Origin: a virus
Taxonomy: Duplodnaviria > Heunggongvirae > Uroviricota > Caudoviricetes
Reading direction: 5' to 3' (one strand)
Length of the DNA: 46,543 nucleotides
Virus record (IMG/VR): IMGVR_UViG_2651869692_000004
Coordinates: 1-46,543 of that record
Position numbers: made by a program. Of the stretch, positions 24,001 to 27,000 are shown piece by piece. The number at the start of each line of letters is the position of its first letter. Within the stretch, counting starts at the first letter, position 1.

Positions 24001-27000
24001 TAAGCGCCTGCGGATCAACGCCACCTGCTCCGGTACCGTGCGTGAAGCCACCGGCACCTCCGGCGTGGATAATGCAACCGGCCCCCGACTGGCAGACACC
24101 GCTGAACGGGATTATTTCATCCTCAGAGAACGGCTGATGGCAATGCAGAAGCAACTGGAAGGAGCACAGGAATATATCCGTACCCAGTGTATACCGTGAT
24201 GTTTTGTTATGAAGGTGTTACTGGTAACGTTAAGGTAATTTAACAAAGAGTCAGTTCCGGACTTTATAGTGTGCTCAGTTCATGGCCAAAAACGATTTCT
24301 GTGATAAATATTTTGAATATTATTTACAGGTAAATGGAGTGGGGCACATGGATAGAAATATTACAATAGAGAATGAAGTATATGCCCGTATTGTATGGGC
24401 AGAGAAGGCAAAAACACGGTAATTCCGTGTGTTGCCATGATACCTGATTGGCAGAATAGTTGTTTGGTTTTGAGTATATAGTCAGCGTTTTTTGTTCAGT
24501 AATTGCTCCCTCAAAAAATAATAAAATAAGGTGATTATTTTTGTTTATTATTTAGTTTTTTTTGTGTGTTGTTTTATTGTTTTTGCGTGGTTTGTTTTTT
24601 ATTGTTATTTCATTAAGGGAAGGTAAATTCAGGATGGCAGTCTGTAGATAATCGGAGGTCACTTATGCTACATGATCACGTGGCAGAATGTCTGGAGAAA
24701 AAAGGACTGTACCGGAGAGCAGCTGAACGATGGGCAAAAGTGATGGTACAGCTAAGTGATGACCAGAAAAGAAAAGTGGCGGCACAGAAACGAGCAGAGT
24801 GTTTGCGTAAGGCGCGCCGGACTCCGGTTTCACCGGTGAACCTGACCGAAATAAAACAAGCGGTCAACAGACTACATTCTGAGTTGGGAATGGGATTTGA
24901 AGAGCGGCGGGTATTCCGACGATATAAAGGGACAGGAGAACAGAATACGTCCGGAAACGCGCGGTCAAAAAAATGCTAAAAAATATCTGAGAGAGTTATT
25001 GCCTGTTACCATAAGAAAAAGCGACTTTAGTGGTCGCTTTTTGTGTCATATATAAGTCGTTTAAGTAAACCTGTCTGAACAGGTGCTCTGGTCGTGTTTG
25101 TCTTTGTTGGGTACAAATTGAGAATATTTTTCATTAATTAATCTTCTTCTGCAGGCTTCAATAACCCACGCTGAAAAATTACCTGAACCTTTCAGGTCAA
25201 GAGCGATGTTAATTTGTTCAATTATCTGGTTTGGAAATCGGATGTTGCGGGTTGTTGTTCTGCGGGTTCTGTTCTTTGATGACATAATGTTGCCCCGTAT
25301 TCAGTGTTGCTGATTTGTATTATCTGAAGTTGCTTTTACGCTAATTTGATGCAGATCAATTAATACGATACCTGCGTAATAATTGATTATTTCTCGTGGT
25401 TTGATGGCGTACACACATGTCGTGATAAACCTCATGTAGATGATAATTATTATCATTTTCGTGGGTCCTTTCCGGCGATCCGACAGGTTACGGGGCGGCG
25501 ACCTCGCGGGTTTTCGCTATTTATGAAAATTTTCCGGGATCCATGTCCGGTTTCTCTTCAAGTTAACTATATGAAAAATATAAAAACAGGTCTTCTGTGA
25601 ACCGGACATGAACAAAAAACAGACATGTAAACCGGACATGACCGGTTTTGTTGTGATTGTGAGGTGAGAGTTTTTGCGAGGTGAGGAGTGGCTACGCAGA
25701 CTGAAGTTGCCAGGCATTTAAGTCTGACCGATCGCCAGCTTCGCAGATTGCAGAAATTGCCGGGTGCCCCGATATCGAATAAGCGAGGGCAACTGGATCT
25801 GGATGCCTGGCGCGATTTTTACATATCGTATCTGAGGAGAAGTAAAAACGATGTGCCTGATGGCGATAGCGAAGACGACTATGAGGAGAAATTGCTTATT
25901 GCCAGATGGGAACTGACAGCAGAACAGGCTGTTACACAGCAGTTAAAAAATGAGGTGTCAAAAGGAAAACTTATTGACACCGGGTTCTGTATTTTTGCCC
26001 TCAGTAAGCTGGCAATGGCGTTATCCAGTACGCTTGATTCCATCCCTTTATCCATGCAGCGACAGTTTCCTGATTTAACACCGCGCCATCTTGACCATCT
26101 GAAAACCCTTATTGCGAAGGGGGCAAATCAGTGTGCGCGGGCAGGGGATAAATTACCGGATTTACTCGATGAATATATCAGAGCAACAACTGAATAATAT
26201 GATGGCTGCCGTTTCGGTTGCGCTGCAGCCTCTGGTCAGGGTTGTACCAATGACGGCAGTTGAATGGGCTGATCAAAATTATTATCTGCCTAAAGAATCT
26301 TCATATGGTGAGGGAGAATGGAAAACGCTGCCATTCCAGATCGCCATTATGAACTGTATGGGTAACGACCAGGTTCGCACGGTTAACCTGATTAAATCTG
26401 CCCGTGTTGGCTATACAAAGATGTTGCTGGGGGTGGTCGGGTATTTTATTGAGCATAAATCCCGAAACAGTCTGCTTTTTCAGCCCACGGATTCTGCCGC
26501 TGAAGATTTTATGAAGTCTCACGTGGAGGCGACGATTCGGAACGTGCCATGCCTGAAAGACCTTTCCCCATGGCTGGGTCGTAAACATCGTGACAATACT
26601 CTCACGCTGAAACGCTTTTCATCGGGCGTCGGTTTCTGGTGCCTGGGCGGCGCTGCCGCCAAAAACTACCGTGAAAAATCCGTTGACGTGGTCTGCTATG
26701 ACGAACTTTCCTCGTTCGAGCCGGATGTCGAAAAAGAGGGCTCGCCAACCCTGCTGGGGGATAAGCGTATTGAGGGGTCGGTGTGGCCAAAATCCATTCG
26801 CGGCTCGACGCCTAAAATCAAAGGCACCTGCCAGATCGAAAAAGCCGCTAACGAGTCGGCGCATTTTATGCGTTTTTATGTGCCCTGCCCGCACTGTGGG
26901 GAGGCGCAGTATCTGAAATTTGGCGATGAGTCCACGCCTTTTGGGCTTAAATGGGAGAAGGACAGCCCCGAAAGTGTTTTCTACCTCTGTGAACATCATG

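Follow-up and report, generated by a model that had tools for sequence, protein, structure and literature searches.

The DNA analysed here, a 46,543-nt stretch from a virus of the Caudoviricetes (one strand, positions 1 to 46,543 of IMG/VR record IMGVR_UViG_2651869692_000004; hereafter the window), contains a gene for a PerC-family regulator preceded by a tract very rich in T and G. We hold with high confidence that the locus represents the pchA cassette carried by a lambdoid prophage of non-Stx type and that the tract is the variable core of its regulatory region. Judged by its sequence, the gene is not merely 'PerC/Pch-like', as it was called in a preliminary description made from the sequence alone, but pchA proper, together with the regulatory region known from the reference. 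Both the gene and the interpretation given there are correct but already known, as the exact protein and the exact locus exist in a reference strain; the pchA find is annotation rather than discovery.

Identification of the pchA gene

The pchA coding sequence (24665-24979, + strand) starts with ATG and encodes 104 amino acids; the protein begins MLHDHVAECLEKKGLYRRAAERWAKVM and carries KKGLYRRAAERWAKVM, the N-terminal signature from which a PerC/Pch regulator had been proposed. The profile search bore the proposal out with a full-length match to the Pfam family PerC (PF06069; E 3.8e-44, 149.3 bits versus a cutoff of 22.6), residues 1-89 of the product lying on positions 1-89 of the 90-position profile. 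The alignment to known Pch proteins gave the same answer, the product being identical at 104 of 104 residues to PchA of Escherichia coli O157:H7 Sakai (ECs_1091, also written ECs1091; prophage Sp4). RefSeq labels the protein a 'PerC family transcriptional regulator' (WP_001303878.1), while the UniRef label for the exact sequence is 'PchABC family transcriptional regulator'.

Two further Sakai proteins of group 1 Pch are nearly identical: PchB (ECs_2182, Sp11) differs from the window protein by V6L only and PchC (ECs_2737, Sp14) by V6L and V58M. Since the window protein has V6 and V58, it represents the PchA allele. At the DNA level the window and the Sakai pchA locus differ by two mismatches in ~995 nt, counted from the end of the upstream gene Rz to past the terminator; one of these mismatches is in the Rz-pchA intergenic region, and the T/G-rich tract is identical.

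Searches for more distant relatives gave little. The product has a sub-threshold match to the NCBIfam ANR family (E 0.046, 13.6 bits versus a cutoff of 32), and a sequence search of the PDB with PchA found no relative. A model built by AlphaFold2 from the single sequence (predicted local distance difference test 51, predicted template modelling score 0.33) has four helices and a disordered tail and is too poor for a fold search. Among GTDB representative genomes two relatives were found, in E. albertii (91% identity) and in Escherichia sp. (77%), by a single-sequence scan that detects close relatives only.

The group 1 pch genes (pchA, pchB and pchC) are the counterparts in enterohaemorrhagic E. 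coli (EHEC) of PerC in enteropathogenic E. coli (EPEC), and they are needed for adherence and for full expression of ler and the enterocyte-effacement locus (LEE) (PMC6265319, PMC4456613). Pch binds the LEE1 promoter region and lowers its occupancy by H-NS and StpA; its activation is wholly dependent on prior silencing by H-NS, StpA, Hha and YdgT, and the regions bound by Pch are the most AT-rich among the H-NS-associated regions (PMC4764244). Activation of LEE1/ler via relief of H-NS silencing is thus on record for a protein identical to the one encoded in the window (PMC4764244). As pchA is a master input to the LEE in EHEC and related attaching-effacing E. coli, the prophage carries virulence-relevant cargo. 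The earlier suggestion of lysogenic-conversion cargo is upheld, the prophage context of the gene, between lysis genes and terminase, fitting the published regulation of the LEE (PMC4764244, PMC6265319, PMC4456613).

Composition and variability of the T/G-rich tract

The 465-bp region between Rz and pchA (24200-24664, + strand; GC 33%) is the native regulatory region of pchA, PpchA. Composition and variability single out within it a hypervariable T-rich module of 123 bp (24498-24620, + strand), which holds the T/G-rich tract with its core at 24530-24615. The tract had been placed at about 24480-24640, where T makes up 49% of the letters, G 20%, C 7.5% and GC 27%. The skew proved real and extreme, but these limits are slightly wide, the skewed core being ~86 nt long. 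The 86 nt consist of 67% T, 19% G, 12% A and 2% C (T+G 86%, GC 21%), and an A-rich run (24511-24529) lies directly 5' of them. When the content of T+G was followed in sliding frames of 80, 100 and 150 nt, the tract was the sole spot in the 46.5 kb, on either strand, to exceed the mean by more than four standard deviations; the 80-nt maximum is 0.888 versus a mean of 0.525 and a standard deviation of 0.064. The 100-nt stretch of lowest GC content (18%, the overall GC content of the window being 50.6%) lies in the tract as well. Tandem Repeats Finder detected a repeat at 24534-24610 that is loose (72-74% matches) and has a unit of 21-25 nt. The tract is unusual in composition and yet not unknown: besides its presence in the reference locus, it is included in the pchA promoter fragment reported in PMC7279287.

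Variability was assessed on 54 distinct 800-nt variants, drawn from the window, 80 loci of IMG/VR and one of E. albertii. Compared with the window, these variants are 88-92% identical across 24495-24614 and mostly 97-100% identical elsewhere, with values below 95% only at both ends of the compared stretch. The paralogues differ mainly in the same place. The pchA and pchB loci of Sakai have 36-39 differences in the 123 positions of 24498-24620 (about 30%), as compared with 7 in 303 upstream of the module, 3 in 44 in the block around the Shine-Dalgarno (SD) sequence, 1 in 315 in the coding sequence and 2 in 150 downstream; pchC differs from pchA at 12 of the 123 module positions. A homopolymer in the module (T8, 24556-24563, + strand) is polymorphic in length, the alignment of 81 loci showing T8 in ~46, T7 in ~27 and T6 in one. 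One locus (L062) has a deletion of ~40 nt spanning the tract core. Hybrid variants such as L005, to judge from the alignment, suggest recombination in the module.

The equivalent 86 nt of E. albertii (91% protein identity), of locus L066 and of the pchB type contain 51-69% T and have a GC content of 15-24%. In the diverged tracts of E. albertii and L066 the sequence is not conserved, whereas T-richness and low GC content are kept. For the homologues in E. albertii and Escherichia sp., alignment with the window upstream of the gene is limited to the ~60-65 nt that directly precede the ATG.

Insertion sequence (IS) elements were also seen at this locus. One lies within the T-rich module of an IMG/VR locus (L186), so that, together with the deletion in L062, natural 'mutants' of the module exist, altered at positions equivalent to ~24520-24600 of the window; an element of the IS3 family lies between Rz and the cassette in O145 strain RM9872 (L001).

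Tests for curvature and H-NS sites

It had been suggested that the tract could be curved DNA or a silencing target of the H-NS type. With a GC content of 18-21% versus 50.6% for the window, the tract does have the marked AT-richness of H-NS-type DNA, and very AT-rich DNA is favoured by both H-NS and Pch (PMC4764244). Fourier analysis of AA/TT phasing at 10-11 bp in the tract gave a power reached by 271-866 of 2000 shuffles, at rank 47 or lower of 2320, and the 21-nt period reported by Tandem Repeats Finder is a loose repeat and not helical phasing. Intrinsic curvature of the tract was rejected on the ground that the 10-11 bp AA/TT periodicity is not above that of shuffles. The H-NS high-affinity motif (TCGATAAATT-like) has no match with two or fewer mismatches in 24250-24664; one two-mismatch site occurs at 24237-24246, the rest of the intergenic region being free of matches, and the count over the whole window is 42 versus ~45 expected by chance. 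The Lrp consensus from systematic evolution of ligands by exponential enrichment matches only at three-mismatch sites, which is the chance level locally. The suggestion of curved DNA or an H-NS target therefore keeps its AT-richness, lacks both the 10-11 bp phasing and the high-affinity motif, and comes out as weakly supported.

Promoter activity and translational control

A butyrate biosensor has been built on native PpchA-pchA and was found to respond only in a delta-hns host (Bai & Mansell 2020, PMC7279287). The primers listed in the supplement to PMC7279287 match the window at 24165-24185 and 24960-24979; therefore, the published 'PpchA-pchA' part corresponds to 24165-24979 of the window, tract included. 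Promoter activity has been shown in this way for a fragment covering 24165-24664 (PMC7279287). H-NS targeting of the tract is plausible given the base composition and the fact that the biosensor needs a delta-hns host, a need that could just as well stem from PLEE1.

The reported regulators of pchA include LrhA, Lrp with butyrate, LeuO and the NtrC/sigma-S pathway (PMC4456613, PMC10714755, PMC13012123), and the group 1 pch genes are SOS-induced (PMC6265319). Differential regulation of pchA and pchB is announced in the title of Honda 2009, as cited in PMC4456613 and PMC13012123. The sequence offers two candidate promoters. The distal one, TTGCCA-17-AATAGT at 24432-24460, is a weak sigma-70-like site (9/12) and the sole site on the + strand passing the scan, which found two promoter-like sites versus 4.1 expected in shuffles. 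The proximal one, TTGTTA-16-TAAATT at 24602-24629 (8/12), was picked by eye and lies partly within the block conserved in distant homologues.

The SD sequence of pchA, GGAGG at 24654-24658 (+ strand), ends 6 nt before the ATG, in a block (about -62 to -1) conserved even in the E. albertii and Escherichia sp. homologues. A partition function calculation pairs 24654-24665 (GGAGGUCACUUA) with 24753-24764 at a probability of ~0.5-0.6 in both transcript models. The latter segment (codons 30-34) is an intragenic anti-SD sequence which, together with a predicted pairing site for DicF, takes up 24743-24770 (+ strand). Nucleotides 1-25 of K-12 DicF (MG1655 annotation) form a predicted duplex of -25.1 kcal/mol with 24743-24770, a value matched by 6 of 500 shuffled DicF sequences. 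According to the accounts of Melson & Kendall 2019 in PMC7769764 and PMC7873438, an anti-SD sequence inside the gene blocks the translation of pchA, and DicF frees it. This control is Hfq-dependent, and reviews mention a 'pchA leader' (PMC7873438, PMC7308464). The published post-transcriptional switch is predicted to be intact in the window copy.

A model of the cassette and alternative explanations for the tract

We propose the following model. PchA is a small PerC-family DNA-binding protein with the mechanism described in the literature. Its gene would probably be expressed by two routes, from a native promoter located at some point of the 465 bp between Rz and pchA and, once the SOS response is induced, by the phage late transcript reading through into it; we infer the second route because pchA is co-oriented with the late operon and SOS induction has been reported. 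Translation is restrained when the ribosome-binding site pairs with codons 30-34, and the small RNA (sRNA) DicF releases it; both elements exist in the window copy and are predicted to pair. The tract is an extremely AT-rich, C-poor and slippage-prone module in which composition is kept and sequence is not; most likely it is a loosely constrained platform for AT-binding nucleoid proteins and regulators of the LysR/Lrp type, situated upstream of pchA or within its leader. The T-rich module is also the main cis difference among the paralogues pchA, pchB and pchC.

Several observations weigh against this model. The phasing and H-NS motif tests were negative, and Lrp-like sites were found only at three mismatches. 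The high variability of the tract is equally expected of a neutral spacer. The sequence yields weak candidate promoters only, so the tract could be either promoter-upstream DNA or a U-rich 5' leader. Furthermore, the window is a prophage only, and a LEE in the host would not be visible from it.

Among the alternatives, the one that we rank next after a promoter-proximal or upstream AT-rich platform is a long U/G-rich 5' leader. The tract would in this case be transcribed from the site at 24432-24460, with a start near 24467, and would act at the RNA level through binding of Hfq or S1, access of RNase E or, being C-poor, resistance to Rho. The location of the sole scan-passing + strand site upstream of the tract speaks for such a leader, as do the Hfq dependence of DicF control, the mention of a 'pchA leader' in reviews (PMC7873438, PMC7308464) and the pairing of SD and anti-SD sequences, which is predicted equally in the long transcript. 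That site, however, is weak and does not stand above shuffles, only weak A:U pairing and no stable structure is predicted for the leader, and it has no Rfam match. The E. albertii and Escherichia sp. homologues, which keep only ~60-65 nt before the ATG and have other context upstream, suggest that the functional unit is short. A long leader is in our view possible, if unlikely.

Somewhat lower in our ranking comes a tract with no specific function, an AT-rich filler shaped by neutral slippage and recombination in a horizontally acquired cassette. The tract is indeed the least conserved part of the cassette, single-nucleotide homopolymer indels, a deletion of ~40 nt (L062) and an IS insertion (L186) are tolerated in it, and all motif and phasing tests were negative. 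A neutral spacer, on the other hand, is expected to drift to the composition of its flanks, and strand-specific T-richness with 15-24% GC is found in every variant, even the unalignable ones. The differential regulation of pchA and pchB announced by the title of Honda 2009 also argues against mere filler, as the two differ upstream, in cis, mainly by the module. We consider a tract lacking function to be rather unlikely.

Two further readings would have the tract encode a product. A minus-strand RNA of ~100 nt could start inside the tract, from a promoter-like TAAACA-18-TATTAT (24547 to 24518), and end at a hairpin with U5 (24430 to 24414), with a regulatory role of the divergent or antisense type. 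The two sites, promoter-like and terminator-like, follow each other in the right order, and the predicted fold, an unstructured C/A-rich 5' part followed by a terminal hairpin, has z = -2.2. But these sites are consensus matches only, the -10 element is not kept in the pchB-type module, Rfam has no match, and the text of the Hfq cross-linking and analysis of cDNA (CRAC) supplement of Tree 2014 has nothing at the corresponding Sakai coordinates; such an RNA is improbable. The known EHEC prophage sRNAs were set aside as candidates, the anti-sRNAs of Tree 2014 being placed at the pR' moron site and not at the pch locus. Less credible still, to the point of being negligible, is a hydrophobic membrane peptide of 31 amino acids, for example of the type I toxin kind. 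An open frame with a GTG start does exist at 24531-24626 (+ strand), and its translation is very hydrophobic; a translation rich in F, V, C, Y and I, though, comes automatically from T/G-rich DNA, and it matches no family. The exact sequence is absent from a collection of 15 billion proteins, 20 of 81 loci lack the start, and about half have lost start or frame. We ruled the peptide out and judged the frame not to be a gene, as it was never called as a protein and neither its start nor its frame is conserved.

The AT-rich platform thus remains the favoured reading of the tract. A bolder extension of it, which we offer as a tentative and rather doubtful idea, is that the 123-bp module is a recombining, slippage-prone regulatory cassette and provides every pch paralogue with a control logic of its own. 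The module could then set responsiveness to LrhA, to Lrp with butyrate, to LeuO or to H-NS, and the T6-T8 run could tune spacing. If this is true, the several near-identical pch genes of one strain would be expressed in conditions that differ from gene to gene. That the variation telling the paralogues apart is gathered in the 123-bp module was not found described in the accessible literature; this provides a lead for promoter dissection and no new kind of element. The module is the obvious place to seek the basis of the reported differential regulation of pchA, pchB and pchC, and a starting point for anyone engineering the biosensor part PpchA, called leaky in a later review.

The cassette in its prophage context

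The window amounts to a lambdoid prophage that is non-Stx and nearly complete. It carries genes for an integrase (1-1074), a cI-like repressor (8376-9104) and Q (17434-18129), and 3' of Q three tRNAs and STnc100 (RF02076, 100.8 bits) at 18340-18586 and 19360-19532 (+ strand). Between this region and Rz/Rz1 lie genes for a NanS-p-like esterase and then lysozyme. The left neighbour of the pchA cassette is the Rz spanin gene (23675-24199, + strand; Pfam Phage_lysis, E 1.2e-48) with Rz1 embedded in it (23952-24137, + strand; from the listing of open reading frames, ORFs). The right neighbour, convergent with pchA, is a YlcI/YnfO gene (25061-25285, - strand; Pfam DUF3950, E 1.3e-17; NCBIfam YlcI_YnfO_N), which is followed in order by genes for Nu1, the large terminase subunit (TerL), head and tail proteins and Lom. 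No stx gene was seen among the window ORFs of at least 90 amino acids. The spot occupied by the tRNAs and STnc100 is the pR' moron site, the home of Stx genes and anti-sRNAs in other lambdoid prophages.

Similarity to other phages ends at the end of Rz (~24191), and similarity to the lambda right end resumes at ~25151 (query positions 952-1101). The pch cassette is therefore taken as a 0.95-kb insert at the Rz-cos slot, and we are quite sure that it is a 'moron' of ~0.95 kb, from 24200 to ~25150, between the lysis genes and the cos/terminase region. The position of pchA after Rz/Rz1 and before terminase matches that of pchA, pchB and pchC in Sakai prophages Sp4, Sp11 and Sp14.

Apart from pchA and the T-rich module the cassette holds an ORF of 46 amino acids (24282-24422, + strand) with no obvious SD sequence, which matches phrog_2157, a family of unknown function, at 46 of 46 positions (PHROGs, E 2.7e-37). 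The ORF is labelled 'hypothetical protein' on at least 577 contigs. A 36-nt tag taken from it lies 330-410 nt 5' of the pch start in 92 of the 93 IMG/VR loci that could be assessed, the sole exception being a locus whose tract is interrupted by an IS element. The ORF is without annotation in those RefSeq records of Sakai and RM9872 that were examined. A terminator-like hairpin with U5 (24414-24430, - strand; terminator scan and fold) is located upstream of the tract. A second hairpin, between A5 and U5 at 25016-25042 (predicted fold AAAAAGCGACU-UUAGU-GGUCGCUUUUU), lies between pchA and the convergent ylcI/ynfO; it is terminator-like on both strands and, as far as can be told from the fold, resembles a terminator that acts in both directions. 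Rfam 15 gave no match at the gathering score in 24100-25700, and the matches at E <= 5 were only chance-level ones (E >= 1.9).

A 1.1-kb pch query is covered to at least 80% in 673 of 5,426 complete E. coli genomes, and the identical 1.1 kb (100%) is found in many genomes of Shiga toxin-producing E. coli. Among the 50,697 deposited phage genomes of INPHARED the cassette occurs only in two short unannotated fragments derived from EDL933, which suggests that prophages with pch are seldom obtained as free phage. No record of the E. coli collection matches the whole window exactly, the best one having 97.7% identity over a 24-kb query.

Other genes of the window

Several genes away from the cassette deserve mention. 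A 500-amino-acid protein (14247-15749, - strand) with DUF4041 and T5orf172/MUG113 domains matches the PADLOC model of the anti-phage defence system PD-Lambda-1 nearly end to end (E 5e-198); its gene is in a low-GC island (~12300-15850) with the replication genes on one side and the Q region on the other. Adjoining it in the island is a gene for an HD-domain protein of 515 amino acids (12340-13887, - strand; Pfam HD, E 8e-07; dGTPase-like TIGR01353, E 3.7e-05, far below cutoff), which may be a second defence or nucleotide-depletion gene. A 317-amino-acid protein (7361-8314, - strand) matches the PADLOC candidate PDC-S42 (E 3.4e-86) and, in NCBIfam, the entry 'LAPAL motif-containing putative phage structural protein' (E 1.9e-80); its gene adjoins that of the cI-like repressor, an odd location for a structural protein. 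Finally, an ORF of 289 amino acids 3' of lom (45513-46382, - strand) matches phrog_23612 (unknown function) in its N-terminal 80 residues only and has no Pfam, NCBIfam or PADLOC match. In EHEC prophages this slot often holds effectors of the type III secretion system, e.g. nleG beyond the tail-fibre genes in Sakai Sp11.

Comparison with known systems

The PpchA part of the butyrate sensor is, by its primer sequences, the same region as the one described here; there it served as a portable promoter fragment and was used undissected, and the action of H-NS on PpchA, PLEE1 or both was left unseparated (PMC7279287). PerC of EPEC, encoded in perABC on the pEAF plasmid and the founder of PF06069, belongs to the same family and has the same reported activity, activation of LEE1/ler (PMC4456613, PMC4764244). 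The arrangement of the genes is different, perC being the third gene of a plasmid operon without a regulatory region of this kind of its own, and the pch genes being single-gene prophage morons.

The closest counterpart is pchA of Sakai Sp4, which has the tract, the SD sequence, the anti-SD/DicF site, the terminator and the left neighbours Rz/Rz1 as in the window. In Sp4, however, the segment from the lysis genes to pchA is inverted and flanked by IS629 and ISEc8, whereas in the window the late region appears intact, and the segment is collinear with it and followed by ylcI/ynfO and terminase. The PchB and PchC loci (Sp11 and Sp14) are of equal length, come after Rz as well and share with the window the 46-amino-acid ORF, the hairpin, the SD block and the terminator; their flanks differ from those of the window by 0.3-4%.

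Morons of the lambda bor type offer a parallel in organization, with an accessory gene that has its own regulatory region and terminator and sits in the same slot 3' of Rz, although the gene itself is unrelated. Lambda bor occupies the slot between Rz and cos and is opposed to the late operon, while pchA is co-oriented with it.

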